Origin: Limisphaerales bacterium
Lineage (GTDB): Bacteria; Verrucomicrobiota; Verrucomicrobiia; Limisphaerales; UBA1100
NCBI GenBank assembly: GCA_965659445.1
Contig: CBFHWX010000002.1
Coordinates: forward strand, 9,243 to 73,242
Length of the DNA: 64,000 bases
Reading direction: 5' to 3'
The notes under the pieces were generated by a model. It did not search any database. It was not told the DNA's origin and saw only the letters and a list, made by a program, of their open reading frames with translations. Both the position numbers and the translations under genes were made by a program. Positions 36,459 to 63,981 of this stretch are shown piece by piece; positions within the stretch are counted from its first letter, which is position 1, and each line of letters begins with the position of its first letter.

Positions 36459-37892
36459 TCAGGACGATGTTACCACGCCACCTGCGAGGCGTGAGGTGGA
36501 AAACTGCGCGCAGTGGTTGAAGAGGCAGTGGTTTATTTCTTCCATCAAGTCATCCCAGTGACCTGGTTTATCCTGTCGAAATAGACGCATGGATGGGTAC
36601 CAAGGAGTGTCAGTGCGATGCAGTCGCCATCGCCAGTCAGCAGCGAAGGGGAGAAGTGTCCAGGTAGGTTTGCCGAGGGCTCCGGCCAAGTGTGCGACGG
36701 CAGTGTCTACGGAGATTACCAGATCGGTTTGGCTGATAATTTTGGCGGAGTCGGCAAAATCGCTGATGGAATCCTGCAAGTCATGCACGTTTGAGCGCCG
36801 GTTCATGTCGGCCACCGCTGTGGCGTCCGCATTAATCTGCAAGGAATAGAACGTACAGTTTGGAGTGTTGAAAAGTTTACAAAATTTCGTATAGGGCACT
36901 GTTTTCTTCTCTTTAATCTCACTGTGCGGTGCGCTGGTCCAGGTGACAGCTACTTTCTTGTGGCCTGGTTTTGCTTCCGGAATGGACGCGATAGAAAGTT
37001 CATCAGGCGAGAGATAGGCTTGGGAGTGGAAATCGTTTTCGCGCGTGACCTTGAGCAAGTGAGGCAGGCTCATAAGTGGAGCCTGCAGGTCATAGCTTGG
37101 CAGTTTTTCCCCGTTGGCCACCACATGTTCCAACCCAGGTTGAGTGCTGAAGAGGCGCTTGAGTTGAGGCTGGCACTCTAGGAAGATACGGTTGTGGCCT
37201 TGGCCCATTTGCTGGGCGAAACGCAGGAACATGATTGTGTCCCCAAAGCCTTGTTCGGTGTAAAGGAGCAGGGAGCGTCCATCGAGTGCGTCGCCCTTCC
37301 ACTCGGGTTTTTTGTAGGTGGGTTTCTGTTTGTTTCTCGCTTTCCACCGGAACTCATAATCGCGCCATCCTCGGGTGTAGTCGCCCAGCATCAAGCAAGT
37401 GAGTCCGTGATTCCACCGCAAATCAGGATGATTGGGGTTGTAATAAAGCGCCTTTCGATATTGCATGAGCGCCTCGGGCGCACGATTTTGTTCCTCCAAA
37501 ATCCAACCAAGGTTTACAGCGGCTTGCGCGGAATCCGGACTCACCATCAGTTCCTTTTCCAAGCACGCCTCAGCGGAGGCAATATCGCCCAACAGCTGGT
37601 GTGAATTAGCCATACCCAAGTGGATGCCGGGCTCTTCAGGTTTGCGGCGGGCGGCTGCCTTAAAGTGATTGAGCGCTTCTGTGGGGCGGATTTGTTTGAG
37701 GCGAGCGGCGCCGTAATTGTACCGCAGATCGGGGGAATCGGCACCAAGGTCAAGGACCCGTTGGTATACGGATACAGCAAGGTCTAGCTCTCCCATTTTC
37801 TGGAAGAACAGTCCAAATTTCTGCAGCGCTTCAGCCTTGGACAAGTCCTGAGCTGAGTGGCTGGATTCAACGTCCGTGTTGATTCTCATCAT
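36459..37892 (-). CDS. TPR-repeat protein fused to a GT9 (heptosyltransferase-like) glycosyltransferase domain
   Basis: The N-terminal ~190 aa are TPR-like (LQKFGLFFQKMGELDLAVSVYQRVL...). The C-terminal part has LLLYTEQGFGDTIMFLRFAQ and ISVDTAVAHLAGALGKPTWTLLPF, the GT9 DTGxxHLAxAxGxP motif. Confidence 0.75.
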   Translation of the reverse strand: MMRINTDVESSHSAQDLSKAEALQKFGLFFQKMGELDLAVSVYQRVLDLGADSPDLRYNYGAARLKQIRPTEALNHFKAAARRKPEEPGIHLGMANSHQLLGDIASAEACLEKELMVSPDSAQAAVNLGWILEEQNRAPEALMQYRKALYYNPNHPDLRWNHGLTCLMLGDYTRGWRDYEFRWKARNKQKPTYKKPEWKGDALDGRSLLLYTEQGFGDTIMFLRFAQQMGQGHNRIFLECQPQLKRLFSTQPGLEHVVANGEKLPSYDLQAPLMSLPHLLKVTRENDFHSQAYLSPDELSIASIPEAKPGHKKVAVTWTSAPHSEIKEKKTVPYTKFCKLFNTPNCTFYSLQINADATAVADMNRRSNVHDLQDSISDFADSAKIISQTDLVISVDTAVAHLAGALGKPTWTLLPFAADWRWRLHRTDTPWYPSMRLFRQDKPGHWDDLMEEINHCLFNHCAQFSTSRLAGGVVTSS

Positions 37893-38023
37893 TTACCGCT
37901 TTCTAAGGTGTCTCCACCTGTTTTGGTCCATCCTTGGGCGCGGTATCGCCATTGCCATTTCTGGCTAGTATTTTCCGAGTATTACTCGGCAGTTTTTGCC
38001 GTTGGCTTTAGCAAAAACTGCCT

Positions 38024-38071
38024 GAAAAAAGAAAAAAGACCGCTGATTAGAGGAAACCCTCCATTCAGCGG
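38024..38071 (-). terminator. Rho-independent terminator after the 635-aa lipoprotein gene
   Basis: On the minus strand CCGCTGA...TCAGCGG, with an inner GAGG/CCTC pairing, is followed by TCTTTTTTCTTTTTTC. Confidence 0.6.
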
Positions 38072-38104
38072 CCAAATTTGAGAAAAACTACCGTTTTTAG
38101 CGAT

Positions 38105-40012
38105 TTACTTATCTTCCCTTGCACCTTCAACAGGTGCTATCTCAATAGCCTCCTGTGCTTCTTCGCCAGGGAACGACGCATCTAATTCACCGGCCATGGA
38201 AGCGATCTGCATGCTCAAATCTACGAGTTGCTTTAGGCCGTTGGCTTTCTTGTCTTTGAAGGTCAATTTTGCAAGCATTCCCTGCTCATTATCACCCATG
38301 GTGCCTGTGAAGGATGCTTCATCTAGTTTGCCCAATATCTGCGCGATCCTCTGCGCCTCCTCCTCACCTTCTCCGAGTTTTTGTATCAATGCCCTCACGG
38401 CATCAATCTGGATGTAGCCACCCATGTCTCCACTGAGCATTTTTTGGTGCCTCTTGGCGGCTGGGTTTTGTGCCTGGCCTCCATTTACGGCAGGTCCATG
38501 GTTTTGGCTGCAGATGAAAAAGGCATTTTCATTCTGCGCAATCTGCATGCCAAAGGCATTGAGGCTGGGTAGGAAGCCCTGTATGGCTGGGTTGTTCAAG
38601 AGTTTGTTGAAGTTGGCCTTGTTGTCGATGGTCATCCCGAGCAGGAACTGTGGCATCACCCCTAAATCACCTCCCATTTCGAGGCCGTCAAACACAGCAA
38701 GGAAATCGCCCTTAGGAATGGTGAGCACATCCTCAATCGTCAGGCCCATCATATTTTCAATCTCCTGAGTCATCTCGGCGGCCTCTCCATTCTTAAGCAA
38801 AGGGAGCAACTGCTTGATCATTATATCGCGGAGAGGTTTCATGTTGATCGCCTCTGCCCCGGCCAAGATTGCGTTGTTGGGGACGAGCTTGAGAAAGCTT
38901 TTATCCAAGCCACCCTTGCTTAAACCCTTGTAGAGTTCGCTATCGGTATAGGAGATCATGTCCATGTCTATGCTGCCCGGTTCAAAACGTACGGCAATGG
39001 TGTACTCCATGTCTTTGGCCATGTCTTTGGTCAATGCAGTTAGAGGGTCGCCGCCTGGAAGTCCACCGGCGGCATCGAAGGCCATGTTCATGAAGCTTTC
39101 ATAATCCATCCAAGCGGCTACATCATATTTACTCTGCAGTAGCACCGCTGCTTTTGAGTCTTTGGCCAACGCTTTCTTGCTGGCAAAACGGTCGGCCAAT
39201 TGGCCGGGCATCTTGGCAACATCTTCAGGATTACTGCTGGCAACAAAGATGAAGGCATCCTTTGAGTAACCCAATGCTGCGGCAACGCCTTCGCCATCCG
39301 GAGGCATCATGCTCTTGTAGCCTTCGCCCTTGCCGCGCTTCACATCATCACCTCCCAATGCGAATAACTTGTTCAAAGCGGTCTCTAATGCATCGGCATT
39401 TTTCACCGAGGCCACTAGGCCGCCACTGACCAATGGCTCGCCAAATGGATCATCAGCTGCTGGGGCTGCAACCTTCACATAAATATGGATAGGCTGGGCA
39501 ACATCAATTCCACTCGCAGCCGGATTCTTGATGATGGCTTGCAAAAGTTCATCGTCCAACTCACTGGCCATCGCCTCGAAGATCGGTGATTCCAACAGCT
39601 TCCTATAGCCGCCTTTTTGCAGCATTTGGCCCACGTTGACGGAAAAAATCGCGTGGGAGTCAGACGGTAGATATTTGGCGTTGGCGGGGAGAGGTTGTGC
39701 TGGAGCCTTCTTGGCCACCGGAGTCACCGCAACTGGGATCGCCACGGGTGGCTCGACCGCAGTTGGTGCAGAGGTATCTTCCACATTGGGCACTAGACCG
39801 GCAGTGGTTTCACCACCTTTCGTTGCCTCATTATTGGCTGCGGCGATGGGTTGGGCAGTGCTCGGGGGTGAAAATTCTCCACCAGTTTGTTTTGTCTCAT
39901 CGGCGGATTTGTTGCAGCCCATCCAGAGAACGGCTGTGAGCATGGCGACCGGAAGACACCAAATAAATGTATGGGCAGAGAGTCCAGTCTTGTATAAGCG
40001 GGGAATTTGCAT
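38105..40012 (-). CDS. Probable lipoprotein, 635 aa, function unknown
   Basis: The signal sequence ends in LWMGC. A Pro/Ala/Thr-rich linker precedes a large globular region. No catalytic motif was recognised. Confidence 0.65.
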   Translation of the reverse strand: MQIPRLYKTGLSAHTFIWCLPVAMLTAVLWMGCNKSADETKQTGGEFSPPSTAQPIAAANNEATKGGETTAGLVPNVEDTSAPTAVEPPVAIPVAVTPVAKKAPAQPLPANAKYLPSDSHAIFSVNVGQMLQKGGYRKLLESPIFEAMASELDDELLQAIIKNPAASGIDVAQPIHIYVKVAAPAADDPFGEPLVSGGLVASVKNADALETALNKLFALGGDDVKRGKGEGYKSMMPPDGEGVAAALGYSKDAFIFVASSNPEDVAKMPGQLADRFASKKALAKDSKAAVLLQSKYDVAAWMDYESFMNMAFDAAGGLPGGDPLTALTKDMAKDMEYTIAVRFEPGSIDMDMISYTDSELYKGLSKGGLDKSFLKLVPNNAILAGAEAINMKPLRDIMIKQLLPLLKNGEAAEMTQEIENMMGLTIEDVLTIPKGDFLAVFDGLEMGGDLGVMPQFLLGMTIDNKANFNKLLNNPAIQGFLPSLNAFGMQIAQNENAFFICSQNHGPAVNGGQAQNPAAKRHQKMLSGDMGGYIQIDAVRALIQKLGEGEEEAQRIAQILGKLDEASFTGTMGDNEQGMLAKLTFKDKKANGLKQLVDLSMQIASMAGELDASFPGEEAQEAIEIAPVEGAREDK

Positions 40013-40090: not shown

Positions 40091-41164
40091 ATGGGATGGT
40101 ACACTGTGGGAATGCGTTGGCTGATGATCACGATGCTGATAGTGGCTTGGGGATGTGGCAAATCGCCGGTTTCGGAGTTGCAGCCGGAAGTTACGTTTGA
40201 TTTGGCAAAGCCTGCGCGGATTGAGTTGAGGGTACTAGGAGAGCCGGGGTTGTGGAAGCAGGACAACATGCTGATCTTTCCCAATGCGGAAACCAACCTC
40301 AATCAAACCAATCGCTTCACTGCGACAACACAGGAGAGCTGGGCGCTCAGGGGAAATCTGCTATTATTGGAAACCGAAATTAGCGGAGAGCAGCCGGGGT
40401 ACGAGTTGGTGGTTAAAAATTATAACGCCGCCGCTGCAACCAACCGGTATCGCTGCACTTGGTTTTATGATGATGGACTAGTGCGTGGGTATGCCGGTCA
40501 GTGGCGGCCGAAACAGGCACGCATGGACTGGCTTCCTCTGTACCTGTCAGGTGCGGCGAAGGGGTTTGATATTCAAATGACCGAAATTTCAACCGGTCCA
40601 ATGGAAAAGCAGCTCGATTTTCAAATCACTATTAATGGGAAGGTTACCTTGAGTGGACTTTTCAAGGCAAAACATGCTGGTAATAATGTCCGGTCCAAAG
40701 AGGGTTCGGATCCCGCCAGCAAGGAACTTGGGCGATTGGGACGAGGCGGAATATGGAAGGAGACGCAAACGGTTTCCGAGGGAGGAGCCACCAAGAATCT
40801 GGAGTTGTTGAACCGTATGCGATGGTCGCGCGGTGGGAAATTTCTTATCAACGAAGGCGTGGTCAATCAGGAGGGTGCTTCAGAATATTTCATGTGGGTG
40901 AAGACGTGGGATGCCGAGGATGATGTATATCGGTGGGCCTATTTTTTCCAGAATGGATGGATCGAACATTTTACAGGCCGCTGGGATGCATCCAAGCAGC
41001 TGATTACCTGGCGTCTTGTCTGGCCAGTCTCGAACTTGGGCAAAGTGCTCCGTGAACGCTTCCTTGGCCCCGAGAAGCGTTCCTGGACATTCGAAGTACA
41101 AAACGCGTCCGGCATCATTGCGACCGGCTCAGGTGGAAGCCAGTTCAAAGGTAATGCCGAGTAG
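40091..41164 (+). CDS. Probable lipoprotein with an internally duplicated domain
   Basis: The signal is MRWLMITMLIVAWGC (alternative ATG at 40112). The two halves share YRCTWFYDDGLVRGYAGQWRPKQARMDW and YRWAYFFQNGWIEHFTGRWDASKQLITW. Confidence 0.6.
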   Translation: MGWYTVGMRWLMITMLIVAWGCGKSPVSELQPEVTFDLAKPARIELRVLGEPGLWKQDNMLIFPNAETNLNQTNRFTATTQESWALRGNLLLLETEISGEQPGYELVVKNYNAAAATNRYRCTWFYDDGLVRGYAGQWRPKQARMDWLPLYLSGAAKGFDIQMTEISTGPMEKQLDFQITINGKVTLSGLFKAKHAGNNVRSKEGSDPASKELGRLGRGGIWKETQTVSEGGATKNLELLNRMRWSRGGKFLINEGVVNQEGASEYFMWVKTWDAEDDVYRWAYFFQNGWIEHFTGRWDASKQLITWRLVWPVSNLGKVLRERFLGPEKRSWTFEVQNASGIIATGSGGSQFKGNAE

Positions 41165-41172
41165 TGGGGAAC

Positions 41173-44100
41173 TTAACTTTCAGTCGACATTGCTTCAATC
41201 AGCATCATGGTCGCAGTGGGTAGCACGGGTTCGAGGGCATCAATGTTTTTCGCTAAACGATTTGCCGCCTCGTTCTGACCGCGCTCCAAGAGGCGACGGT
41301 ACCATTCCATAAAAGCGGTGCTGATCAGTTGCTCCTTGTCAGGATCACTCAACTGCGCCGTTTGTCCGATGGCAATACGGCACAAGATTCGCGCGCCCTC
41401 GTTCAACGGATGTTGAGGGATCTTTTCAAATAACGCCAGTGCGTCCTTGAAATTTCCAACAGTAAGCAGAGCAACGCCGCGTTGTTTACGTATCTCTGGA
41501 TGTTCCGGGAATTCATCTATAGCGCAATCGGTCCAATGAAGGGCGACTTCAGAATCCTTTAGATGGCCATTGACAATATGACAACCGAGCGACCAGAGGC
41601 GCGCGTCGATGGAGCCGTTTTCAATAGCGTCAAATAGGAGTTTGACAGCTTTTTCCGGTTGTCCCAACTCGGTTAAGTATTGGGCATACCCATGACGAAC
41701 ACTGGTGGCTTCCGGGGCCATGCCCAAGGCTTGTTCATACTCTGTAATGGCTGAGTCTTCTTGGCCGGTCTTAGCCAGGCAATCGGCCAGCAAATGATGA
41801 GGGCCGTGTCCTTCTACACCCATAAATCGTGCAGTGAATGCTGGCTCATCCCGCTTGGTAATGCATTCACGGAAAGGCTCAATCGCCTCCTCAAATCGTT
41901 GCTGTTTCAACAATGCCAAGCCGTGTACGTAATGTATGGATGCAGTTGGTCCGCAATCAATGGCTAGCGTGCTGGTCGCGATCTCCACCAGTTCATCGTA
42001 GAGCTCGGCTTGCAACAAATGATAGCAGTATACACTTACTAATCGTTCGCGCACTTCCGGTAGAATGTCTTCTCGTGTGTGTTTGGAAAGCAGAGCAAAG
42101 GCCTCTTGATCCTTTTCGAGAGCCGCCTCAAACTGCCCGTCATTGAATAGATCCAGGGCGTAATTCATTAGGAGCGTGGGTTCCGGCGGCTGTTCTTTGA
42201 TGGACATTTCAAGAAGTTTCAAGTTGCGCCTCACTTTGTCGCGTTCCTTTTTCACTTCCGGCGCGTAGCCAAAGTGATGCAGGCAGGAGGTGCCTATGCC
42301 CGAGTCCATTTGCCAATCGATCTGACGCGCCAGCACTGAGGAATAAATCTGCTCATGCACGCGGCCCACAAAATGAAGGCTTGGCGCATTGCGGAACAGC
42401 CTCGGTACATAGCATATACCATCGGCGGTTTCATTGTCATCTTGGTCTACCTTGATTTTGTTCACCAGTGGTAAGCGATAGCCGAGATGGTTGGGGCGGG
42501 ACAAATCGTCACACAAGTGGTCGATTTCGCCTGTGGGCAGGATTTCATCGGCGTCCAGCACGAGCACCCAGTCTCCTCGGGCGTGTTCCAGTGCAAAGTT
42601 ACGAGCCGCGGAGAAATCATCGCACCATTCAAATTGATGAACCTCAGCGCCATGTTCTTCGGCAATTGCTACGGTCCGATCGGTAGAGCCTGTGTCGACC
42701 ACGACTACTTGATGGGCAATGTTTGTTATGGATTGCAACGCGTTGCCGAGAAATTTCTCTTCATCCTTGGCAATGAGACAAACGCTCAGGCGTAGACTTG
42801 TAGGGTTTTCGGGTAATGCGGGCCAGTTGATTCCCGGAGATTGTCCGGGTGATTGCTGTTTGATAGCCTCAAGAGCTCGCTGCGGAATCTCCCAGTTGGG
42901 AGTTAATCCCTTCAGCACCTCTAGACATTTCACCGCCTGTTGCGTATCACCGGATTCGAGAGCGATCTCGGCCAGATGCAGGTAAGCCTCGGGGTGGAAA
43001 GGGCGTTGCCCAATGGATTTCAGAGTCTCCTGCCATGATTCGATGTGCAGTCCTTGGTCAAGCAGTTCCTGAGCATGATCCAGATTTCCGACCAATGCTG
43101 TCGCGGGCAAATTTGCAGGATCATTTGTTGTTTTGTTTTGGACATGGCTACAAAGGTTATCCAACACATCGGCGCTGATATGACCGTTCGGTTGAGTTGA
43201 CATCTCGGGTTGAGTGGTTGTGTTGGCAAGTGCCTTCAAGTTCTCGGCGGCCACGGTATTATTTGGATCAATTTCCAAGGCGCGCTTGAAGCAGTCTTCA
43301 GAGGTGTCCTTGTCGTTTAGATTGTGGAAACAAACTCCCAGAGCGAGAATGATCTCAATGTCCTCCGGCAAGTCGGGCAGGGCTTGGCGGTAGAGATCAG
43401 CAGCTTCCTTATATTGTTTCGCCCTAAAATTGGCCGTTGCCAGCAGTTTCAGGCCATGAGAGTTCTCAGGCTCTAACTCGAGCGAGCGTTCCATGTAGAT
43501 TTCAAAGGTTTCATAATCTTTGACAAGCAATGCCGTTGTGGCCGCTTGTAATTGAACAGCGACTTCATTGGGTTGCAAATCGGAGTTTCGTCGAAAATAT
43601 TCCAGTGCCTCCTCTAGTTGTCCTTCACTGAAGTAAAGGTTGCCCAATGCCGTGAGTAGAGCCACTTCACTGGGTTGTTGCGACAGCATATTTTCCAACA
43701 ACGCAATCGCGCGTTGGGGTTCTTTCTGTTCGAGAGCAGCCTGCGCCTCCTGTAATAATTCACTTAGCGGTTGTGATTCTGATTCTTGAGCCTCAGTTTT
43801 CGTTTCGGTGAGTGAGTCACCTTGTTTAATTGCCAAGAGGTTGGTTTGGGCAATTTCGTTTTCCGGCTCCAACTGAAGGGCGCGCTCGTACGTGTCTTGC
43901 GCGGCTTCTGTTTGACCACCCCGATACAGGCACATCGCCAGAGCTAAGAGGTTTTGGACATTGTGTGGTTCCAGTTCCACCAGTTTGCCAAAGATGCGAC
44001 CGGCATCATAGTGGCGCTCCTGGTCGAGATTCATTTTACCCATGAAATGGAGCATCTCTGGCAATTCCGGATCTATCTCCATTGCCAAACCAAGGGCGGA

Positions 44101-51895: not shown

Positions 51896-52429
51896 ATGTG
51901 TGGACTGAACTTGGAGAGATTGGAATCGATTGTTTGTGATTTTGATGGTGTGCTGACAGACAATCGCGTGTGGACGGATGCTGAGGGGCGTGAAATGGTA
52001 GTGTGTCATCGGGGTGATGGTTTGGCATTCGATGTGTTGCGAGCGATGCCCGTGAAAGTATTTATTCTTTCCACTGAAACGAACCCGGTAGTTGCGCGAC
52101 GGGCACAAAAGCTGTGTGTGCCTTGCTTGCAGTCGGTTGGTTGCAAAGCGGAGGCATTGCGCGAGTTATCGGCAGAACATCAATTTTCATTGGGGCACAC
52201 GTTGTTTATAGGTAACGATTTAAATGATCTGGCAGCAATGGATTTATGTGGGTACCGTGCGTGTCCGGCGGACGCGCATCCGGTAGTTCGATCGCGCGCG
52301 CATATAGTCACCGGTGTGGTGGGCGGTAATGGGGTGGTCCGGGAATTAGTGGAGAAACACTTGAGCATAGACATGGACAAGGCGTTGCGGAAAGGCGCTG
52401 GTGGGGAAGAAGGGCGAGAATGTTCATAA
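51896..52429 (+). CDS. HAD-IIIA phosphatase of the KdsC / ulosonate-phosphate phosphatase family
   Basis: The HAD motif I is IVCDFDGVLTDNRVW. Also present are GDGLAFDVLR, FIGNDLNDLAAM and GGNGVVRELVE, as in KdsC and KDN-9-P phosphatase. It overlaps the NeuB-like gene by 10 nt. Confidence 0.85.
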   Translation: MCGLNLERLESIVCDFDGVLTDNRVWTDAEGREMVVCHRGDGLAFDVLRAMPVKVFILSTETNPVVARRAQKLCVPCLQSVGCKAEALRELSAEHQFSLGHTLFIGNDLNDLAAMDLCGYRACPADAHPVVRSRAHIVTGVVGGNGVVRELVEKHLSIDMDKALRKGAGGEEGRECS

Positions 52430-53262
52430 TCGCTGAGATCGGAATTAATCACAATGGGGATGTAGACATTGCGCAGGCGTTAATCTGTACGGCCAAGGAA
52501 GCGGGATGTGACGCGGTGAAATTTCAGAAGCGAACCTTGGAGGTGGTGTATCCGGCGGAGGTGCTTGACGCGCCACGGGAGAGCCCTTGGGGTACAACCA
52601 ATCGCCAGCAGAAAGAAGCACTTGAGTTTGGCCGAAAGGAGTATGAGCAGATCGATGCGTTTTGCCGCGAACTAAACATTGAATGGTTTGCTTCGGCCTG
52701 GGACAAGGAGAGCCAAATTTTTCTGCGGCAGTTTAATCTTAAGTACAACAAGATTGCCTCGGCGATGATTGTAGATGAATCGCACTTGCGCCAAGTGGCG
52801 GAGGAAGGGAAGCATACCTTCATTTCCACAGGGATGAGCCAGATGACGGACATTGAACGGGCGGTGACGGTGTTTCGTGAATTGGGCTGTTCCTTTGAGT
52901 TGATGCATACCATCTCGACATATCCTATGAAAGATGAAGACGCTAACCTGAACTGCATACCCATGCTTCGTAAAAAATTCCAATGTGATGTGGGCTACAG
53001 CGGTCATGAGTCGGGACTGGCAGTATCTTATGCGGCTGCGGCGTTGGGGATCAGTTCGTTGGAACGGCACATTACTTTGGATCGAGTGATGTACGGGTCC
53101 GATCAGGCGGCTTCTGTAGAGCCAGTCGGCCTGCGCATGCTGGTGGGTGCGGTGCGCAAGATTGAGGAGGCGATGGGCGACGGGGAGAAATGCCTGCTGG
53201 AAAGCGAGAGACCTATCGCCCAAAAGTTGCGGTTGCATTTGCCTTGGGAGTCTGGTGAATGA
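52420..53262 (+). CDS. NeuB-family (sialic/ulosonic acid) synthase, TIM-barrel only, without the C-terminal SAF/AFP-like domain
   Basis: MFIIAEIGINHNGDVDIAQALICTAKEAGCDAVKFQKRT is the NeuB N-terminal signature. GYSGHESG and LERHITLD are also present. At 280 aa it is about 60-70 aa shorter than canonical NeuB, PseI or LegI. Confidence 0.85.
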   Translation: MFIIAEIGINHNGDVDIAQALICTAKEAGCDAVKFQKRTLEVVYPAEVLDAPRESPWGTTNRQQKEALEFGRKEYEQIDAFCRELNIEWFASAWDKESQIFLRQFNLKYNKIASAMIVDESHLRQVAEEGKHTFISTGMSQMTDIERAVTVFRELGCSFELMHTISTYPMKDEDANLNCIPMLRKKFQCDVGYSGHESGLAVSYAAAALGISSLERHITLDRVMYGSDQAASVEPVGLRMLVGAVRKIEEAMGDGEKCLLESERPIAQKLRLHLPWESGE

Positions 53263-56978: not shown

Positions 56979-57063
56979 AGTGTATTTGGGGTTTTGTGAC
57001 AAAAGTCTGATGGTGACCGTGCTTGGTGTAGTATTTATGGCTGAAGGCTTCCAAGTTTAGCAT

Positions 57064-57918
57064 ATGATCTGTAATTTGAATAAGCGCATTGGATTCATAC
57101 AGGGCCGGTTATCTCCGTTAGTGAATGGCCGAATTCAAGCTTTTCCAAAAGATTATTGGTGTGAAGAGTTTTCTTTGGCACAGGGACAAGGCATTTGTCT
57201 GATGGAGTGGACATTGGATCATGACGCACTTCACGAAAACCCCCTCCTCACGACTGATGGACGAACAGAGATGCAAAGGCTTTCTGATATTCACCAGGTA
57301 TCTATCCCTTCTCTTACGGGTGATTGTTTTATGCAGTTTCCATTTTGGAAGGCTCCAAAGGCTCAACGGGAAAGTTTGGAGCATGACTTTCTGGCGGTTA
57401 TTGATGCTTGCTCTATTGTGGGGATTGAATTTGTAGTTGTTCCTTTGGTGGATAATGGAAGTCTTGAGGCAACAAAAGAAGAGAATGTTCTGGTTGAGTT
57501 TATGGAACGGCATGCTGAGGTTTTTCGAGCGAGAAAGGTATCTATTTTATTTGAGTCAGATTTCGTTTCTGCCGAGCTCAAACGTTTAATTAAAACATTT
57601 CCGGCGGGAGTTTTTGGCATTAACTACGACACGGGAAACAGCGCATCTCTCGGTTATCAGTTTCAGGATGAAATTGAAGCATACGGAGATCGAATCCTGA
57701 ATGTGCATATTAAGGACCGACTTCTTGGTGGGACGACGGTACCTTTGGGTACTGGTAACGCGAAATTGCCAGAGACAATTTCTGCGTTAGAACGGCAAGG
57801 GTATGAGGGTAATTATATTCTTCAGACGGCCCGTGCTCTTGATAATGACCATGTTGGTGCGATACACCGTTACCGCGAAATGGCAAAGGATTGGATAAGT
57901 CAGGCCAGATGGAATTAG
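57064..57918 (+). CDS. Xylose-isomerase-like TIM-barrel protein (sugar or sugar-phosphate isomerase/epimerase)
   Basis: 284 aa. IGFIQGRLSP...EWTLD, FESD and LNVHIKDRL resemble the UlaE/SgbU/hexulose-phosphate isomerase type. Confidence 0.7.
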   Translation: MICNLNKRIGFIQGRLSPLVNGRIQAFPKDYWCEEFSLAQGQGICLMEWTLDHDALHENPLLTTDGRTEMQRLSDIHQVSIPSLTGDCFMQFPFWKAPKAQRESLEHDFLAVIDACSIVGIEFVVVPLVDNGSLEATKEENVLVEFMERHAEVFRARKVSILFESDFVSAELKRLIKTFPAGVFGINYDTGNSASLGYQFQDEIEAYGDRILNVHIKDRLLGGTTVPLGTGNAKLPETISALERQGYEGNYILQTARALDNDHVGAIHRYREMAKDWISQARWN

Positions 57919-58691
57919 GACTCGAAAATTCACGAGTGTTAATTACCGGTTCATCGCGTGGAATAGGTCATGGGATTGCTGCCTCTTTTATGGAAGAAGG
58001 AGCAATCGCGGTCTTGACCGGCAGAGATGAGAAAGATTTAACTGCTGCTCAAGAAATTCTTATCGGTGAGCATGGTGCAGATCATGTGGAGGCATACGCA
58101 GGAAACCTCGGTGAGCCTGCAGTCCGATCTGGATTGTATGAATATTTAGCTCCTCGTGGATTAGATCATCTTGTGTGCAACATTGGCTCAGGTCGGTCGG
58201 TTCCGGCATTCCAGGAAAATGATGAAGAGTGGCGCCGTATGTTTGATGTAAATATTGTGCAAGCTGCTGGTGTATTGCGACAGCTGCGCGACCTTTTGGT
58301 TGCGAGTGCGCAACGTGGGCGGGATACAAGCGTTACATTTATTGGGTCGATTTGCGGGATGGAAGCACTGGGTTGCCCTTTGCCTTATGCATCTGCAAAA
58401 GCAGCGTTATGGGCATATGCAAAAAATCTGGTCCAACCACTGGCGAAAGATGGCATTCGGGTCAATCAGGTTACTCTGGGTAATATCTTGTTCCCAGGAT
58501 CGACATGGGAGAATAAGCTGGATGAGGGGGAGGCAAGTGTACAACAAATGCTGGAAAAGGAAGTAGCCATGCGTCGTCTTGGCACCGTGCAAGAAGTGTC
58601 GGCTGCCGTTGTTTTTCTCGCATCGAAGCAGGCAGCATTTATTACTGGTGCAAATCTGGTTGTCGACGGCGGCCAGACAAGGGGGTTATGA
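57909..58691 (+). CDS. Short-chain dehydrogenase/reductase (SDR)
   Basis: The cofactor motif is VLITGSSRGIGHGIA and the catalytic motif is YASAKAAL. The ATG at 57909 overlaps the upstream stop. Confidence 0.85.
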   Translation: MELGLENSRVLITGSSRGIGHGIAASFMEEGAIAVLTGRDEKDLTAAQEILIGEHGADHVEAYAGNLGEPAVRSGLYEYLAPRGLDHLVCNIGSGRSVPAFQENDEEWRRMFDVNIVQAAGVLRQLRDLLVASAQRGRDTSVTFIGSICGMEALGCPLPYASAKAALWAYAKNLVQPLAKDGIRVNQVTLGNILFPGSTWENKLDEGEASVQQMLEKEVAMRRLGTVQEVSAAVVFLASKQAAFITGANLVVDGGQTRGL

Positions 58692-58706
58692 ATATAGGGG
58701 GAGAAA

Positions 58707-59540
58707 ATTAGGGTTCGTGATCAGTTTGACCTAACCGGCAGGCATGCGGTCATAACCGGTGGTGCGGGAATGTTGGGGGTTAAGCATGCCGAAGCCATTG
58801 CTGAACTGGGGGGAATCCCTGTCATCGTCGATATCGACATGGAGCGATGCGATCAGGTGGCGGAGCAAATCAGGAAAGAATTCAAGGTAAACTGCATTGC
58901 AGCTCCTGCGGATATAACAGACCCACAACAGGTCGTTAAATTGTGTGATAGCCTCTTAGAGGATTGCGGTCACCTCGATATCCTCATCAATAATGCCGCC
59001 AACAATCCGTCAGTTGGTTTAGGCGGTATGGATCAAGTTCATGGTTCCCGGATGGAGGTATTTCCCTTGGAGGTTTGGAATCAGGATATTGCGGTTGGCT
59101 TAACCGGAGCTTTCCTCTGTGCACGTACCTTTGGCCAGTTAATGGCTAAACAGGGTAAGGGAGTGATTCTGAATATTGCTTCTGATCTCGCCCTAATTTC
59201 ACCCGATCAACGTCTCTATCATAAGTCAGGTTTGCCTGAACAGGCTCAATCCGTGAAGCCCGTAACTTACTCTGTGGTAAAGAGCGGACTGATTGGCTTG
59301 ACCCGTTATTTGGCTACCTACTGGGCAGATCGCGGGGTGCGTTGTAATGCCCTATCTCCCGGTGGTATTTATGTCGATCAAGAAGAGGGTTTTGTGCAAC
59401 GCCTAAGCCAACTGATTCCGATGGGGCGCATGGCCACCAAGGATGAATATAAAGCCGCTGTGGCTTTTCTGGTTTCTGATGCTTCCAGCTATATGAACGG
59501 CGCAAATCTGGTTATTGACGGCGGGCGAACGGCGTTGTGA
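58707..59540 (+). CDS. Short-chain dehydrogenase/reductase (SDR); start codon unresolved
   Basis: The catalytic motif is YSVVKSGL and NNAA is present. The cofactor motif VITGGAGMLG begins upstream of the first canonical start (ATG 58770). The only candidate in the open frame is ATT at 58707, which has GGAG 4 nt upstream. Confidence 0.7.
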   Translation: MRVRDQFDLTGRHAVITGGAGMLGVKHAEAIAELGGIPVIVDIDMERCDQVAEQIRKEFKVNCIAAPADITDPQQVVKLCDSLLEDCGHLDILINNAANNPSVGLGGMDQVHGSRMEVFPLEVWNQDIAVGLTGAFLCARTFGQLMAKQGKGVILNIASDLALISPDQRLYHKSGLPEQAQSVKPVTYSVVKSGLIGLTRYLATYWADRGVRCNALSPGGIYVDQEEGFVQRLSQLIPMGRMATKDEYKAAVAFLVSDASSYMNGANLVIDGGRTAL

Positions 59541-59740
59541 AACGGTCTCTGGTTACTGCAACAATCGAGCAGCCTTGGCCTAAGGATGGCTGTATTTTGT
59601 TCCAAATGTTGAGTGTGGAAAGCGAGAGCTCCCGTGCCTGCTTTAGCGCTTGAGTCAAGCACTGGAAATCCCTGTCCGTTGAATCACTGATTCTGTCGGA
59701 TGGAAAATCAGTCATCAAGAATTTGACGACTTAATTAGGG

Positions 59741-60607
59741 CTAAGCAATTGAGTTGGTTGTAAGATAATCCAAGCCAAACTCGCTGACGCATTTGCCGGA
59801 CAAATCCCCCGCGATAAGTTTATCAACCTGTTCTGAGTTTCCCTGTTCCATTGCATGGTGGATTTGGCAACAAACCTCAGGAGGGAGGGCTGGGAATTGA
59901 TCGGCGATCTGAGGCTTTACCGGCAATTGAATGCCACCAAAACTTCGACTACGAGCCTTGTGCCCATATAAGCTGTGCCAACGTTGGAAGAATAACTCCT
60001 GATCTTGTTCGAAATGCTCGGCTCTACGGTTGGTCTCAACTTCATCTTCTATATTGGCAAATTCCATCCAAGCGTCCGGGCAGGTGATTACCCTTCCACC
60101 GTAATGCCATGTCCGCAGTGAAAGATCCGGATCTCCGTAATAAGAATGAAAATAAGTGTCGTAAAATCCACCGAGCTGCGCCACGTGTTTGCGCTTTATG
60201 AACGGGAAACACGAATACAGAAACCCGTAGACACCCGGCTCCGTTCGTTCGCCAGTCACATCAAACGCCCTGAAATTGCCAATCATCAGACTGTCATCTT
60301 CCTTTTCCATAAAGGATAACATGTTTGAAGCCCATTGCGGGGTGACATACGTGTCATCGGCCAGTGCTACTACATATTCTCCGTCTGCATTTAAATACCC
60401 TTGAGTATTCGCATGGCACGATCCCTTGGGGGAGATTTCCTCAACATGCTTTACGCGTGGATGGTCTATTTTGAAAGGAGCAACCAATACCACTTCGTAA
60501 TCGACATCACCGGTCCATCGATCAATTCGATCTACGCAACGCCGTGCGCGATCCACCCGGAGTGAGGGAAGGATGATGCTCAGCTTTGGCTCGTTAGATG
60601 TGAGCAT
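59741..60607 (-). CDS. GT2-family (GT-A fold) glycosyltransferase
   Basis: LSIILPSLRVDRARRCVDRI...YEVVLVAP and ALADDTYV (DxD-like) are present. It is 288 aa. Confidence 0.7.
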   Translation of the reverse strand: MLTSNEPKLSIILPSLRVDRARRCVDRIDRWTGDVDYEVVLVAPFKIDHPRVKHVEEISPKGSCHANTQGYLNADGEYVVALADDTYVTPQWASNMLSFMEKEDDSLMIGNFRAFDVTGERTEPGVYGFLYSCFPFIKRKHVAQLGGFYDTYFHSYYGDPDLSLRTWHYGGRVITCPDAWMEFANIEDEVETNRRAEHFEQDQELFFQRWHSLYGHKARSRSFGGIQLPVKPQIADQFPALPPEVCCQIHHAMEQGNSEQVDKLIAGDLSGKCVSEFGLDYLTTNSIA

Positions 60608-60609
60608 GG

Positions 60610-61827
60610 CTAGGTGATAGCAAACTCCGTGGCCTGTGAGGGCCTTCCGGATTGTTCGCCTGAAAGCTTCATTAAGTTTACCTTGGCCTGTTCACTTGCC
60701 GGAAACCGGTTCAGCTCATCCATGAATAGTGTCTTAGCCTCATTTTCGGCACCGGCCGTTGCGAAGGCCACGCCAAGTTGATTGCGCACGCCGCGTGTAT
60801 TTGGCGCGGAATTCAAGACACACTGCAGGCTTGGGATGGCTGCTTGAGGCTGATTCATGAATAAATTCAAAAGACCCAGCATTTGGTGGGCATCCATATT
60901 GTTCGGGAATTGTTCTGTGATTACCTCCAGTTCACGAACCGCAGAATGGTGTTTGGTTTGTTCAATAGCTCCTTTTACGGTTTGCATCAGGATGCGCTCG
61001 AGGTCTTTCGAGGAGTGTCGCACTACATCGTTTCCTTCAATGGGTAAATCTGAGGAGATGTTTAAGGCAATGTTTCGCGCCTGATTTTTAACCATTGTTC
61101 GATAGAAATCGCCTGCTATAAAATCAAAATTCCATTTCCGATCACTATGCCATCGTTCGGATTGATCGGAGTCCACGGCCTCATGCAAGCGGCGATGAAT
61201 GAGAGGTTGGTCGGTAAACAGGGTTCGGTTGATGCCATGATGATGATGCAAATACCATTGCAGACACAGGGTCCAAGCATCGGTAAACGATACATGTCCC
61301 AGCCCTCCACAAATCTCAAGCAGTTTGCGACTCCAAAAAGGACCTTCATCAATCACCTCAATCGTGTCCATGTGGTCGAGAGAAAAATCGAGATAAAAAG
61401 GGGAGTTTTTATAATCAGGTCGATAGAAAGGAGGGTGTGGCAATTGATGGATAATATAAATGTCATCGTCAAATGCATTCGTCCGGCTCAAAACGGTCTC
61501 ATCCCATCCTTCCTTAACAATGATAAAATCGTCGGCAAAACACCCCATCACAGTACTGCGTGAATCTGCCAGGGACATGACTCGTGTGTAGCCGATGTGA
61601 ATGTCAATGTATCCGCGGCCCCGTGGCTCAATGAGGTACTTGATGGCAAAGGGATATTGATCCAGCGTCCTTACAAATTCCGGTACCAACCGGTCATCAG
61701 AATCAAATTTAACCAACACCTCAAAATTATCATAATTGGAACTCTTTTCCTTGAGGCCATCAAGAAGATTGGACAAACCCCAGTTTGGGTTGCCTTCGAT
61801 TCTTGAGGTTATTAGTAAACTAATCAT
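60610..61827 (-). CDS. GT-A-like domain fused to C-terminal TPR repeats
   Basis: The N-terminus has ISLLITSRIEGNP...FEVLVKFDSDD...CFADDF. The C-terminal ~110 aa are TPR-like (AHQMLGLLNLFMNQPQAAIPSLQCVLNSAPNTRGVRNQLGVAFATAG...). It ends 2 nt before the next gene. Confidence 0.6.
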   Translation of the reverse strand: MISLLITSRIEGNPNWGLSNLLDGLKEKSSNYDNFEVLVKFDSDDRLVPEFVRTLDQYPFAIKYLIEPRGRGYIDIHIGYTRVMSLADSRSTVMGCFADDFIIVKEGWDETVLSRTNAFDDDIYIIHQLPHPPFYRPDYKNSPFYLDFSLDHMDTIEVIDEGPFWSRKLLEICGGLGHVSFTDAWTLCLQWYLHHHHGINRTLFTDQPLIHRRLHEAVDSDQSERWHSDRKWNFDFIAGDFYRTMVKNQARNIALNISSDLPIEGNDVVRHSSKDLERILMQTVKGAIEQTKHHSAVRELEVITEQFPNNMDAHQMLGLLNLFMNQPQAAIPSLQCVLNSAPNTRGVRNQLGVAFATAGAENEAKTLFMDELNRFPASEQAKVNLMKLSGEQSGRPSQATEFAIT

Positions 61828-61887
61828 CTAATGTTTCAATCCACGACCGTATCAATACAGAATCTCACCGCCTCTTCGTCCGTCAAG

Positions 61888-61904
61888 CAGCATTTCCCGA
61901 GCCA
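61888..61904 (-). promoter_or_regulatory. Degenerate sigma-54-like element (TGGCTCgggaaATGCTG) upstream of the GT-A/TPR gene
   Basis: GG and GC are retained at consensus spacing and the TGCTG extension is shared. There is one mismatch in the -24 box. The predicted start is about 51 nt upstream of the ATG at 61827. Confidence 0.3.
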
Positions 61905-61935
61905 CTTTTGGTGAAAAATCGGTAATTTGACTTAA

Positions 61936-63981
61936 TCATAAAGCTGCCATTCTTTGATATTCATCCTCATAAAATTGAGATTTTTGAGGTTTTGAAAAAA
62001 TATTAGCAATTTCAAGGGTTGCTGAATCCTTTGCGCCCGTCAGATTTATGCATTGCTTTAGTGCCACAAAGGCGTTTTCACGATCGCCGGCGTTGGCCAT
62101 TTGAGTGATATTTTCCAATGCCGAATTGAGCAGTGTATCCAAGGCTGGTTTCAGTCTGTTTTGGAAAGGAAAAGAGACCATGACACACATGCCCTGTTCA
62201 GCCAGCTTTTGGATATCTTCTGGAGGATGGTGAGCCAATCGGAAATCTTCCCCCAAGGCTGGTGAGAGCGCATAAAATAATTCGCCCACTTGTGCGAGCT
62301 GGTAGCCGCGATATTCACCCAATGAGATAACCGTTTGCCCCGTGGAAACATCTTGGGTTAATAAGTCATACACTGGTGTATTTTCAGCATGTTGGCTAAG
62401 GAGTTGAGCAAATCGACGTCGAGTGATGTTGGCCGCCCTTGAGCGACATAGTTCATTATTAAAAATTCGGTGAGTCCAATCTGCCGCCGTCCGTTCTGCA
62501 AGTATGGAAAGTCGAAGATTTCCATCTTCTGCTCTCATCGCTTGTTCCAATAAACGTTGGCTCGCGATGGTCAGTTTGCCTAATTTTATGGCGTGTCGTA
62601 TTTTATCATCGTTTTCGGATAATAGTATCCTGTGTTTTTGACAATCAGATTGGCTTGTAGGTGCTGATTCATATCCCAACTGAGTTAACGCTTCATTTGC
62701 GATGTCGTGAAAGCAGGCGGCGTGGCTACCGTTGATTTGCGCTTGTGGCCTTGAGTTCTCAATAGAAAAGTTGGAAATAGCATCGTTAATGGCATTCGGT
62801 GTTCGGTGAACATTTAAAAATTTGAGAACTTCCTGTACCACCTGTACCGGGTGGGTTTGCATGTCTTCATACCGTATGACTTGCAAACGCATAATTTTGG
62901 CCATCTCCAGCCAATATAGGTTGAATAAACCCCAAGTCTCCGCAGGAGGTAATTTAAATAGTCCTGGGAAATGTTCCGGCCATTCCTCAGGGGTGAGAAG
63001 ATAATCCTTAAAAGACATGCTCTCTGAATGGTGTTGATGATAGTGGGAATGCACCGCGTCACGACCGTCCCGAGTTAGGAGGATGCTGGGCTGGTGTGTG
63101 TTCCTTGCAAAATCCAGACGATGGTTAATACGGCTTTTCAAGCCCATTGCGTGCAGCACATTTACCAACCACTCGGCTCCGCTGAGGAAGGGGGCAGATA
63201 CGATTTGAACTTCGGGATGGGCCTCCATATGGGTGTAGCCCCAGCGCTGCAGAAAGCAGTCAAAGTGTTCATGAAATGCTTTTATTACATTATCATCAAA
63301 CTGGTTCTTCCAATCGCCGCTAATGCCCTTACGGTACATGAAACTGGTTCGGATCGTCGGGCCATCCTCACCGCACTTCCGTCCGGCAACTGCCTCAAAA
63401 CTGTTCTGCTTACACACCTCTTGTAATTCTGGTTCTGGTAATTCTAATCCGAGAGAGTGTAGAATAGAATGTACGGCTGCTGGAATATCCCGCTTCATTT
63501 CTTCAAATGAAAGTGTGTGGACATTGGGTTGATCCAAATGAATCCACTCGTCTGCGTGATGAAACATTCCTCCAAACTCCGAGCTGATATAATCCAAATA
63601 TAATTGCTTTTCCGTATGACCCTCATGGAGTTCACGATGGATTAGATCTTTAACGTGTGATACAAGGACATCGCGTGGGTCACGGAATAAACAGATGAAT
63701 CGAAAATCTTCCCGGTCGAGAAATCGCTCAAAAACACTTGCTGGACTGTGGGTCCAATGAAAAATAGGTGCCTCTTCAGTGAATTGTTTTTCAAATTCAA
63801 TTGAGTCTCCAGGCCCCCCCAGCGCCGTGTATTGAAACTTTTCAGTCAGTAATTCGACAAGAATGGGCACGATGGCCGATGCACCCGCATTGTTCAGGTT
63901 ATAAAAAACCACATGCGGTCGTTTGGACCAATCAGATTCTCTTGTGCAATGTTGCCGATGCTTGTGGTGTGCTGATCTCAT
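61936..63981 (-). CDS. Tandem-domain sulfotransferase with a C-terminal helical region
   Basis: Domain 1 has LFRDPRDVLVSHV (3'-phosphate-binding motif) and YRKGISGDWKNQFD (Sulfotransfer_1 hallmark). The second, diverged domain has SAPFLSGAEW and ILLTRDGRDAVHSHY. It is 681 aa. Confidence 0.8.
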   Translation of the reverse strand: MRSAHHKHRQHCTRESDWSKRPHVVFYNLNNAGASAIVPILVELLTEKFQYTALGGPGDSIEFEKQFTEEAPIFHWTHSPASVFERFLDREDFRFICLFRDPRDVLVSHVKDLIHRELHEGHTEKQLYLDYISSEFGGMFHHADEWIHLDQPNVHTLSFEEMKRDIPAAVHSILHSLGLELPEPELQEVCKQNSFEAVAGRKCGEDGPTIRTSFMYRKGISGDWKNQFDDNVIKAFHEHFDCFLQRWGYTHMEAHPEVQIVSAPFLSGAEWLVNVLHAMGLKSRINHRLDFARNTHQPSILLTRDGRDAVHSHYHQHHSESMSFKDYLLTPEEWPEHFPGLFKLPPAETWGLFNLYWLEMAKIMRLQVIRYEDMQTHPVQVVQEVLKFLNVHRTPNAINDAISNFSIENSRPQAQINGSHAACFHDIANEALTQLGYESAPTSQSDCQKHRILLSENDDKIRHAIKLGKLTIASQRLLEQAMRAEDGNLRLSILAERTAADWTHRIFNNELCRSRAANITRRRFAQLLSQHAENTPVYDLLTQDVSTGQTVISLGEYRGYQLAQVGELFYALSPALGEDFRLAHHPPEDIQKLAEQGMCVMVSFPFQNRLKPALDTLLNSALENITQMANAGDRENAFVALKQCINLTGAKDSATLEIANIFSKPQKSQFYEDEYQRMAAL

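Follow-up and report, generated by a model that had tools for sequence, protein, structure and literature searches.

A probable flagellin glycosylation island beside flhF in an uncultured marine bacterium of the Verrucomicrobiota

Directly beyond the flagellar genes on a 64,000-nt stretch of DNA from a marine Limisphaerales bacterium (contig CBFHWX010000002.1), here called the window, lies a dense block of genes for glycosyltransferases (GTs), sugar-nucleotide synthesis and sugar tailoring. Positions 1-36456 of the window hold a complete flagellar cluster (FlgI, FlgH, FlgA, FlgF/G, FliS, FliD, MotA/B, FliA, FlgC, FliE, FliF, FliG ... FlhA, FlhF), and the block, taken here as 36459-63981, extends from the flhF side to the edge of the window. 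Our best explanation is that this block is probably a flagellin glycosylation island of an uncultured marine bacterium, cut by the window edge. By its best genome match, SAG AH-558-L06, and by the names of more distant homologues, the bacterium was placed, as probable, in the Verrucomicrobiota. An earlier note on this DNA had the island begin 2 nt after the flhF stop and extend to the window edge, and the open reading frame (ORF) map agrees; since the map gives both ends, that of flhF at 36456 and that of the convergent 477-aa ORF at 36459, the 2-nt gap is real. The island comprises 18 tightly packed genes, with a largest intergenic gap of ~270 nt in the ORF map. Domains were called by Pfam and NCBIfam profile searches, at E <= 1e-3 for island proteins and at E <= 1 for proteins left unassigned. 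L-numbers are our labels for relatives' loci or metagenomic contigs, and P-numbers are labels for homologous proteins.

Evidence for a protein acceptor comes from a giant 2443-aa multi-GT, which is without a transmembrane (TM) segment and has orthologues 40-60% identical in L001-L011 and in L038. Its GT2 domain (residues ~1901-2104) matches the GT domain of GmaR (PDB 22ao) at E 3e-31, with 112 bits and ~32% identity over 204 columns, and the motifs VDTGSTD, DFSAARNF and DADE are conserved between the two; the next-best PDB match is SunS (7msp), at E 1.8e-14. In Listeria monocytogenes, GmaR is a proven beta-O-GlcNAc transferase of flagellin, in which the GT domain precedes tetratricopeptide repeats (TPRs) (PMC9638930). 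Here, too, a homologous GT2 domain is followed by TPRs, and both proteins are cytoplasmic and encoded among flagellar genes (PMC9638930). The two differ in build: GmaR has 637 aa, with a single GT domain, a linker and a MogR-binding anti-repressor domain, whereas in the window the GmaR-like module makes up the last quarter of 2443 aa, behind two GT-B-like modules and a TPR array of ~590 aa. That array is presumed to be a platform for binding the acceptor protein. A comparison of residues 1880-2443 with the GmaR 141-637 region gave no PDB match at E <= 1e-6, and residues 1-1180 had no PDB sequence match. SunS and ThuS, the second-best relatives of the GT2 domain, are also protein- or peptide-directed GT2 enzymes with helical-repeat extensions, but SunS modifies a Cys of a co-encoded bacteriocin precursor, and there is no such peptide gene here.

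In one relative (L002, 1-6787), the giant GT is seemingly split: tblastn recovers residues 100-1767 separately from residues 1893-2441, and the sole part called as a gene is a 534-aa GT2+TPR ORF. Either the split is natural, the GmaR-like module being able to stand alone as in L007 (see below), or it reflects frameshifts in the assembly.

Three fusions of TPR arrays to GT domains had been proposed for the island. That of the giant GT (41173-48504) is confirmed. In the 477-aa protein next to flhF (36459-37892), the TPRs are accompanied by a marginal GT9-like domain, and in the 405-aa protein (unk405; 60610-61827) the TPRs are solid, whereas the GT-A part can be recognized only at the level of its family. 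The TPRs of the 477-aa protein match TPR_11/16/19 and other Pfam families over residues 16-185. In its C-terminal domain, PF01075 scores 26.3 bits (cut-off, 22) in a match that spans only 35 residues, the NCBIfam model for heptosyltransferase I scores 28 bits over residues 327-424, and the GT9-like motifs EQGFGD and DLVISVDTAVAHLAGALG are conserved; the best PDB match to a profile of the protein was only WaaC, at E 0.33. The gene adjoins flhF in all of the relatives' loci examined (L001-L007).

With its N-terminal TPRs and putative C-terminal GT-B domain, the 477-aa protein resembles, by layout alone, FlmG, the flagellin pseudaminyl- or legionaminyl-transferase of Caulobacter crescentus and Brevundimonas, which is likewise encoded with flagellar genes. 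The TPR domain of FlmG binds flagellin, and its C-terminal domain is of the GT-B type (PMC7591256); its donor is a CMP-activated nonulosonic acid, and its acceptors are flagellins of ~273 aa (PMC7591256; 10.1101/2022.03.25.485807). However, FlmG is longer (596 aa), and the pseudaminic acid (Pse) and legionaminic acid (Leg) pathways of that system (PseB/C/H/G and LegB/C/H/G) are not present in the island.

The N-terminal domain of unk405 belongs to a family of ~440 representatives, in which Glycos_transf_2 was matched by 4 of 40 sampled members (best E, 2.6e-6) and E36, D42, D45 and D100 are invariant at GT-A-like positions. Aligned by hhalign with the GT2 domain of the giant, the family reached a probability of 0.06% with 8 sequences and, with 40, E 0.006 and a probability of 6%, which is not significant alone; unk405 and the adjacent 288-aa GT2-like protein had no BLASTP match to each other. 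The TPR region is modeled by AlphaFold2 (AF2) at pLDDT 80-92, with PEX5/MamA-type matches, in a model whose overall mean pLDDT is 52. Judging from the family as a whole, residues 1-270 are probably a divergent GT-A domain fused to TPRs. An orthologue of unk405 (57% identical) lies directly upstream of the giant GT in L011.

The island combines soluble GTs and nucleotide-sugar genes with no machinery for lipid carriers or export, as is expected of a flagellin island. Consistent with what the earlier note had reported, none of the 18 island products matched Wzx, Wzy, Wzz, an ABC exporter or a priming transferase in Pfam or NCBIfam, and no polytopic membrane protein is encoded in 36459-63981. TM-like segments are absent except for the N-terminal signal/lipobox stretch of the DUF4836 protein and one borderline hydrophobic stretch in a protein with a triosephosphate isomerase (TIM) barrel. 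The island proteins also gave no match to MAF_flag10/DUF115 at the thresholds stated above.

The position of the island is conserved. On relatives' metagenomic contigs found through homologues of the 477-aa protein, the shared order is flhA-flhF-TPR/GT9-DUF4836-unk357-giant GT, where DUF4836 and unk357 stand for two predicted lipoproteins. This backbone is kept in L001-L011; FlhA is 81-90% identical where flhA lies on the locus (L001-L007), and flhF orthologues 58-72% identical adjoin the same island genes in L001-L007. Two relatives, L007 and L038, reach the far (flagellin) side of the island. The order in L007 is flhA-flhF-TPR/GT9-DUF4836-unk357-TPR/GT2-flagellin-csrA-fliW; its TPR/GT2 protein has 1280 aa, equals residues 1175-2440 of the giant GT and is followed directly by a 273-aa flagellin, csrA and fliW. 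In L038, eleven genes separate the giant GT from flagellin-csrA-fliW; in order, they encode a methyltransferase, a radical S-adenosylmethionine (SAM) enzyme with a SPASM domain, a class III aminotransferase, a homologue of the 389-aa protein (unk389) of the window, a B12-binding radical SAM enzyme (B12-rSAM), a DegT aminotransferase, a split thiamine pyrophosphate (TPP) enzyme, a GHMP kinase, a nucleoside triphosphate (NTP) transferase, an epimerase and a DAO oxidase. Thus, the comparison that the earlier note had suggested, whether relatives keep such an island beside flhF or flagellin genes, came out positive, with the same backbone lying between flhF and flagellin-csrA-fliW in both. The flagellins of the relatives have ~272 aa and a central region with 30-37% Ser/Thr. 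The picture is one of a fixed TPR-GT backbone with a swappable cassette between transferase and flagellin gene, a pattern that characterizes islands for flagellin glycosylation.

Most of the relatives sampled have sulfotransferase genes next to the giant GT, several of them with an APS kinase gene as well. Immediately upstream of this GT, L008 carries genes for a methyltransferase, a sulfotransferase, a tandem sulfotransferase and a 640-aa protein; L009 carries adenosine 5'-phosphosulfate (APS) kinase, a methyltransferase and a tandem sulfotransferase; and L011, a single-cell genome of a marine Verrucomicrobia bacterium, carries an APS kinase-sulfotransferase fusion, a methyltransferase, a sulfotransferase and the unk405 orthologue. 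Compared with L011, the plus-strand block 48777-59540 of the window, together with the 288-aa GT2 gene, is an insertion between unk405 and the giant GT.

An alternative cassette occupies the same slot in L009 (1-9925), L011 (453-11648) and L038 (9952-18121). Its members are a GHMP kinase, a split TPP-dependent decarboxylase (E1_dh + Transket_pyr), a DegT aminotransferase, a B12-rSAM enzyme, a phosphoenolpyruvate (PEP)-utilising enzyme of ~830 aa, a GATase, an NTP transferase, APS kinase and a methyltransferase. These genes represent an uncharacterised pathway and recur with the sulfotransferases.

Table 1. Features of the island and its left anchor, in window coordinates
Feature	Coordinates	Strand	Evidence and remarks
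flhF, SRP54-type GTPase	35341..36456	+	Pfam SRP54; last gene of flagellar export block, left anchor of island
477-aa soluble protein, TPR (~16-185) and C-terminal GT-B, GT9-like domain	36459..37892	-	TPR families and PF01075
635-aa DUF4836 predicted lipoprotein	38105..40012	-	PF16120 111 bits; lipobox LWMGC; conserved in L001-L009
357-aa predicted lipoprotein (unk357)	40091..41164	+	Lipobox VAWGC; no Pfam or NCBIfam match
2443-aa soluble multi-GT	41173..48504	-	Order: GT-B-like, weak TPR, GT-B-like, long TPR array, GmaR-like GT2, TPR
Giant GT residues ~2160-2360, C-terminal TPR block	41425..42027	-	TPR matches on segment 1751-2443
Giant GT residues ~1901-2104, GT2 (GT-A)	42193..42804	-	GmaR/SunS PDB matches; PF00535 73 bits; NCBIfam SunS family 59 bits; DAD at 1984-1986
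Giant GT residues ~1180-1770, main TPR array (~590 aa)	43195..44967	-	Many TPR families, E down to 1e-59
Giant GT residues ~1047-1140, second Glyco_trans_1_2/Glycos_transf_1	45085..45366	-	PF13524 61 bits, PF00534 30.7 bits on segment
Giant GT residues ~312-419, first Glyco_trans_1_2 (GT-B C-terminal half)	47248..47571	-	PF13524 24.2 bits, E 3.5e-5 on segment 1-500; just under 25-bit cut-off
B12-binding radical SAM enzyme, 539 aa, class B	48777..50396	+	PF02310 and PF04055; CxxxCxxC at 203-210; GC 0.42; no NCBIfam equivalog reached
389-aa protein (unk389), low GC	50485..51654	+	No Pfam, NCBIfam or PDB sequence match
KdsC/KDN-9-P-phosphatase-like haloacid dehalogenase (HAD) protein, 177 aa	51896..52429	+	NCBIfam KdsC 88.9 bits, KDN-9-P phosphatase 88.4 bits, both below cut-off
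Short NeuB-family ulosonic-acid (phosphate) synthase, 280 aa, no SAF domain	52420..53262	+	PF03102 225 bits
CMP-ulosonic acid synthetase-like cytidylyltransferase, 261 aa	53500..54285	+	PF02348 (CTP_transf_3) 73 bits; PseF-like N-terminal half 117 bits vs cut-off 206
Class III (omega-type) pyridoxal phosphate aminotransferase, 460 aa	54285..55667	+	PF00202 298 bits
Vicinal oxygen chelate (VOC)/glyoxalase-fold protein, 144 aa	55660..56094	+	PF00903 52.6 bits
SAM-dependent methyltransferase, longest ORF 317 aa	56025..56978	+	Methyltransf_23 81.7 bits
Xylose-isomerase-like TIM barrel (sugar/sugar-phosphate isomerase/epimerase-like), 284 aa	57064..57918	+	PF01261 68 bits; weak L-ribulose-5-P 3-epimerase match
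Short-chain dehydrogenase/reductase (SDR) 1	57891..58691	+	adh_short_C2 120.6 bits
SDR 2	58770..59540	+	adh_short_C2 148.9 bits; 45-59% identical in 27/80 cassette loci
288-aa soluble GT2-like protein	59741..60607	-	PF00535 31.7 bits (weak); conserved in L037, L121
405-aa protein (unk405), GT-A-like domain (1-270) and C-terminal TPR (274-390)	60610..61827	-	No Pfam GT match
681-aa tandem sulfotransferase, two Sulfotransfer_1-like domains	61936..63981	-	PF00685 126.7 bits, two stretches; last gene before window edge

The profile searches recovered almost all of the domains that had been listed before, including the combination of a phosphatase, a NeuB-like synthase and a cytidylyltransferase with a B12-rSAM enzyme, a class III aminotransferase, a methyltransferase and a double sulfotransferase. 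They added genes that the earlier note had left out, namely, those for the VOC protein, the TIM barrel, the two SDRs, the weak 288-aa GT2 and unk389. The description of the whole 27 kb as a glycan island is accurate for the enzymes but not for 38105-40012 and 40091-41164, which encode predicted lipoproteins rather than glycan enzymes. The gene order is not an assembly artefact, since two independent contigs, L037 (100% identical) and L121 (84-86% for unk389), repeat it from unk389 through the sulfotransferase (50485-63981).

Within the plus-strand genes, the NeuB-like gene overlaps the phosphatase gene by 10 nt. In the routes to 3-deoxy-D-manno-octulosonic acid (Kdo) and ketodeoxynononic acid (KDN), PEP is condensed with a sugar phosphate, and the product is dephosphorylated and activated with CMP. 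A sugar-phosphate and PEP route of this kind is implied in the island, since the synthase gene overlaps a KdsC-like gene and a cytidylyltransferase gene follows. As in the known systems (the KDN-9-P synthase and phosphatase of Bacteroides thetaiotaomicron; KdsA/KdsC/KdsB), a synthase, a HAD phosphatase of the KdsC family and a cytidylyltransferase are encoded together, and the phosphatase of the window scores equally against the KdsC and KDN-9-P phosphatase models. In contrast to those systems, the synthase, phosphatase and cytidylyltransferase of the window all score under the equivalog cut-offs (for the synthase, 234 versus 400 for NeuB_NnaB and 177 versus 340 for PseI; in the PDB it is nearest to 6ncs, a sialic acid synthetase of 290 aa, at E 3e-39), and the cassette adds a class III aminotransferase, a VOC protein, a TIM barrel and two SDRs. 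Because of these additions, a modified (amino, possibly methylated), undescribed product is implied. For the upstream enzymes of the Pse, Leg and Neu5Ac routes (PseB/C/H/G, LegB/C/H/G, NeuC), the island holds no match to a DegT aminotransferase, 4,6-dehydratase, N-acetyltransferase or Epimerase_2. The product is probably an undescribed, amino-substituted ulosonic acid, although the exact sugar is not deducible from sequence.

The B12-rSAM enzyme may carry out a methylation or another radical tailoring step. The AF2 model of unk389 has a mean pLDDT of 55; in a Foldseek search all of the top 30 and nearly all of the 50 listed matches were GT-B folds, at template modeling scores of only 0.2-0.3, a hint that unk389 is possibly a GT-B-fold enzyme, either a glycosyltransferase or a sugar-nucleotide epimerase. 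L038 has a homologue of unk389 in the stretch that separates its giant GT from flagellin, and P0158 is 100% identical to unk389. The methyltransferase probably starts downstream of the start of its longest ORF, because the L121 orthologue was called at 241 aa. The class III aminotransferase has partners 48-59% identical within the same cassette in L051, L062, L065, L101 and L109.

The Maf-type islands of Campylobacter, Helicobacter, Aeromonas and Shewanella are similar to the one described here in being hypervariable, in lying beside flagellin genes, as the island does in L007 and L038, and in joining a NeuB-family synthase and a CMP-transferase to methyl and amino tailoring. They differ in that our island is without MAF_flag10/DUF115 and in that its synthase is without a SAF domain and is paired with a KdsC-type phosphatase.

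The donor cassette is also found far more widely. In JGI metagenomes, at least 595 loci have a synthase at 61-72% identity, of which 80 were fetched (L041-L120). Recurring there in the same order were the phosphatase (46 of 80), the CMP-transferase (43 of 80) and the TIM barrel (34 of 80), as well as the SDRs, the VOC protein and the class III aminotransferase. Six cassette contigs were measured for GC content, which was 32-43%, with five at 32-37%. Queries with FlhA, FlhF, FliD, FliS, flagellin, CsrA, FliW, the giant GT and the TPR/GT9 protein had no tblastn match on the 80 loci, and the one annotated flank, that of L109, encodes an ABC_membrane+ABC_tran exporter, an epimerase and a GmhB-like HAD protein. 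Because the cassette occurs away from flagellar genes, its ulosonic sugar could also feed another glycoconjugate. To judge from this distribution, the donor cassette is a promiscuous mobile module that was recruited into the flagellar island in this lineage, rather than a flagellum-specific one. In the window, GC falls to 0.37-0.42 across 48001-52000, which holds the B12-rSAM and unk389 genes, against ~0.51 for the window, and this low GC suggests, and is consistent with, recent horizontal acquisition from a low-GC donor. The borders of the inserted cassette are marked by neither a tRNA gene nor a long flanking repeat.

At the other end of the island, domain 1 of the tandem sulfotransferase aligns with cytosolic sulfotransferases (SULT2A8, 7d1x, at E 1e-16) and keeps the 3'-phosphate-binding RDPRDVLVS (residue 100), the THSP histidine and RKGISGDWKNQF; domain 2 keeps RDGRDAVHS. 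In L008, L009 and L011, orthologues 41-42% identical adjoin the giant GT or are encoded a short way upstream of it. An APS kinase gene is adjacent in L009 and in the context of P0128, and APS kinase and sulfotransferase are fused in L011 and in P0135-P0137. On this evidence, sulfation of the flagellin glycan, while unproven, is likely. Literature linking bacterial flagellin glycans to sulfotransferases or sulfation was not found, in a search of open-access papers only that counts as a weak negative.

Homologues of the tandem sulfotransferase also occur in other settings. P0130, P0131 and P0139 (638-877 aa) are fused to TPR arrays, and since some homologues carry such arrays, protein-directed sulfotransferases are hinted at. 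In a Burkholderiaceae metagenome-assembled genome (L012, DATKFG010000077.1, 223-11200), an 805-aa sulfotransferase, a 913-aa PEP-utilising enzyme and a TPR/GT9-like protein are encoded beside fliS. In L013-L015 (Accumulibacter, Rhodocyclales and Azonexus), sulfotransferases are paired with B12-rSAM genes.

The two lipoprotein genes, on opposite strands, sit between the two TPR-GT genes in every relative (L001-L011), where unk357 orthologues 32-47% identical hold the same position. Both proteins have a hydrophobic N-terminal signal/lipobox stretch, which reached a TM-like score in DUF4836 only. We imagine that they may be periplasmic or outer-membrane accessories of the flagellum. As for expression, no site with the sigma-28 promoter consensus was found in the island, and the counts of sigma-70 promoter-like and terminator-like sites were at or below the level of shuffled sequence.

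The sequences show the domain content, the homology to the GT domain of GmaR, the solubility of all the enzymes and, in relatives, a conserved place between flhF and flagellin; the acceptor, the sequence of reactions, the nature of the sugar and its sulfation belong to a pathway that we infer, as follows. The plus-strand cassette (48777-59540) would build a CMP-activated 3-deoxy-2-ulosonic acid in the cytoplasm: the TIM-barrel enzyme and the SDRs would prepare a sugar phosphate, the short NeuB-like synthase would condense it with PEP, the KdsC-like phosphatase would dephosphorylate the product, and the cytidylyltransferase would activate it. The class III aminotransferase, the SAM methyltransferase, the B12-rSAM enzyme and the VOC protein would tailor the sugar. 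The soluble TPR GTs (477 aa, 2443 aa and 405 aa) would then glycosylate Ser/Thr residues of unfolded or chaperoned flagellin, their TPR arrays holding the acceptor, and further sugars would be added by the two extra GT-B-like modules, the 288-aa GT2 and perhaps unk389. The tandem sulfotransferase would use 3'-phosphoadenosine 5'-phosphosulfate (PAPS) to sulfate the glycan, the protein being the less likely target, before export of the modified flagellin through the flagellar type III system.

Several observations weigh against this interpretation. The window encodes no flagellin, CsrA or FliW by tblastn with a relative's proteins, as the earlier note had stated for flagellin; because the window holds no flagellin gene, the flagellin linkage in this genome is extrapolated from relatives. 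The GT calls are weak for the C-terminal domain of the 477-aa protein, the 288-aa protein, the 405-aa protein and unk389, and the two conserved lipoprotein genes within the block have no obvious part in cytoplasmic glycosylation. The donor cassette alone is common in marine loci without flagellar matches, and its L109 flank has an ABC exporter. Finally, both domains of the sulfotransferase are without the canonical 5'-phosphosulfate-binding lysine of the PKSGTTW loop (NNAGASA in domain 1, FLSGAEW in domain 2), and genes for PAPS synthesis (APS kinase, ATP sulfurylase) are absent from the window.

The spread of the cassette in low-GC marine contigs and the low GC of the B12-rSAM and unk389 genes, suggestive of horizontal acquisition, would fit a general surface-glycan locus (lipopolysaccharide [LPS], capsule or exopolysaccharide) or a general protein O-glycosylation locus that is merely beside flagellar genes, with the ulosonic acid going to polysaccharide machinery elsewhere. 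Yet the 27 kb contain no export protein, priming transferase or other membrane enzyme, TPR arrays are found on the transferases, among them a GmaR homologue, the same slot in relatives is bounded by flagellin-csrA-fliW, and the content of the cassette varies while its position stays fixed, as in known flagellin glycosylation islands. We therefore consider such a locus improbable; GmaR homology, synteny in relatives and soluble enzymes without export machinery support the view, already taken in the earlier note, of a protein-directed and probably flagellin-directed island rather than one for LPS or capsule. Still less probable, in our view, is that the TPR GTs act on another flagellar protein, such as the hook, the cap protein FliD or the lipoproteins DUF4836 and unk357. 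The specificity of TPRs cannot be read from sequence, and in relatives the lipoprotein genes always lie between the 477-aa TPR-GT and the giant GT; however, lipoproteins are Sec-exported and would not meet cytoplasmic GTs folded, GmaR, the sole homologue of known function, and FlmG, the sole architectural analogue, both modify flagellin, and the GT gene of L007 directly abuts a flagellin gene.

A different doubt concerns sulfation alone. The missing loop lysines and the absence of APS kinase and ATP sulfurylase from the window might mean that the tandem protein is not a working sulfotransferase here, serving instead as an inactive scaffold or using another donor, so that the glycan is unsulfated. 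We take this possibility seriously but think it unlikely: domain 1 retains its 3'-phosphate-binding motif, the histidine and RKGISGDWKNQF, and APS kinase stands next to, or is fused with, sulfotransferase domains in the orthologous islands, with such fusions also found among homologues.

Three observations in the flagellar cluster lie outside this argument. The gene directly upstream of a 90-aa ORF and fliA (12636-15908, minus strand) encodes a protein of 1090 aa in which Sel1 repeats are combined with a trypsin-like peptidase domain, which is unusual for a flagellar operon. Between fliD and fliS, a 276-aa predicted lipoprotein (6554-7384, minus strand) has no family match; it was considered as a flagellin and rejected, since it is a lipoprotein with no similarity to flagellin. 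Inside this 276-aa ORF, at 6682-6707 (minus strand) and upstream of a 110-aa ORF and fliS, there is a good sigma-28-type motif, TAAAGTTATGCTCAAATCTGCCGATA.

Whether flagellin is glycosylated bears on filament assembly and motility, on recognition by phages and grazers, and on immune detection. The characterised systems are mainly those of a few pathogens and Caulobacter, with Maf, FlmG or GmaR-type enzymes and Pse, Leg or GlcNAc. Flagellin glycosylation islands and TPR-bearing flagellin transferases are thus known already; what is distinctive here is the 2443-aa GT, the sulfotransferase and APS kinase that are its conserved partners, a route through a phosphorylated intermediate to an ulosonic acid other than Pse or Leg, and the phylum. 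We tentatively propose, as a possibility that we would not yet count on, that the flagellin of this marine lineage of Verrucomicrobiota, and perhaps that of some Betaproteobacteria, bears a sulfated glycan or is O-sulfated itself, through cytoplasmic PAPS-dependent tandem sulfotransferases that are conserved partners of the giant GmaR-like GT. The core of such a glycan would be an undescribed ulosonic acid with amino and methyl modifications, formed by way of a phosphorylated intermediate. If so, this would be the first sulfated bacterial flagellin, as far as our literature search showed, and the giant GT, with some 2400 aa, three GT modules and two TPR arrays, would be a third transferase architecture beside Maf and FlmG.

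The locus extends flagellin glycosylation to marine Verrucomicrobiota and points to a modular design, with two predictions: that the flagellin glycan is sulfated and that its donor is an ulosonic acid other than Pse or Leg. Sulfation, if confirmed, would extend the known modifications of bacterial flagella by a strongly anionic one, and the recurrence of a sulfotransferase, APS kinase and a PEP-utilising enzyme beside TPR-GTs in two phyla, with flagellar genes nearby where contigs reach, would define a new tailoring module. Away from flagella, the abundance of the donor cassette in low-GC marine bacteria offers a lead to what is probably an undescribed and abundant marine surface sugar.

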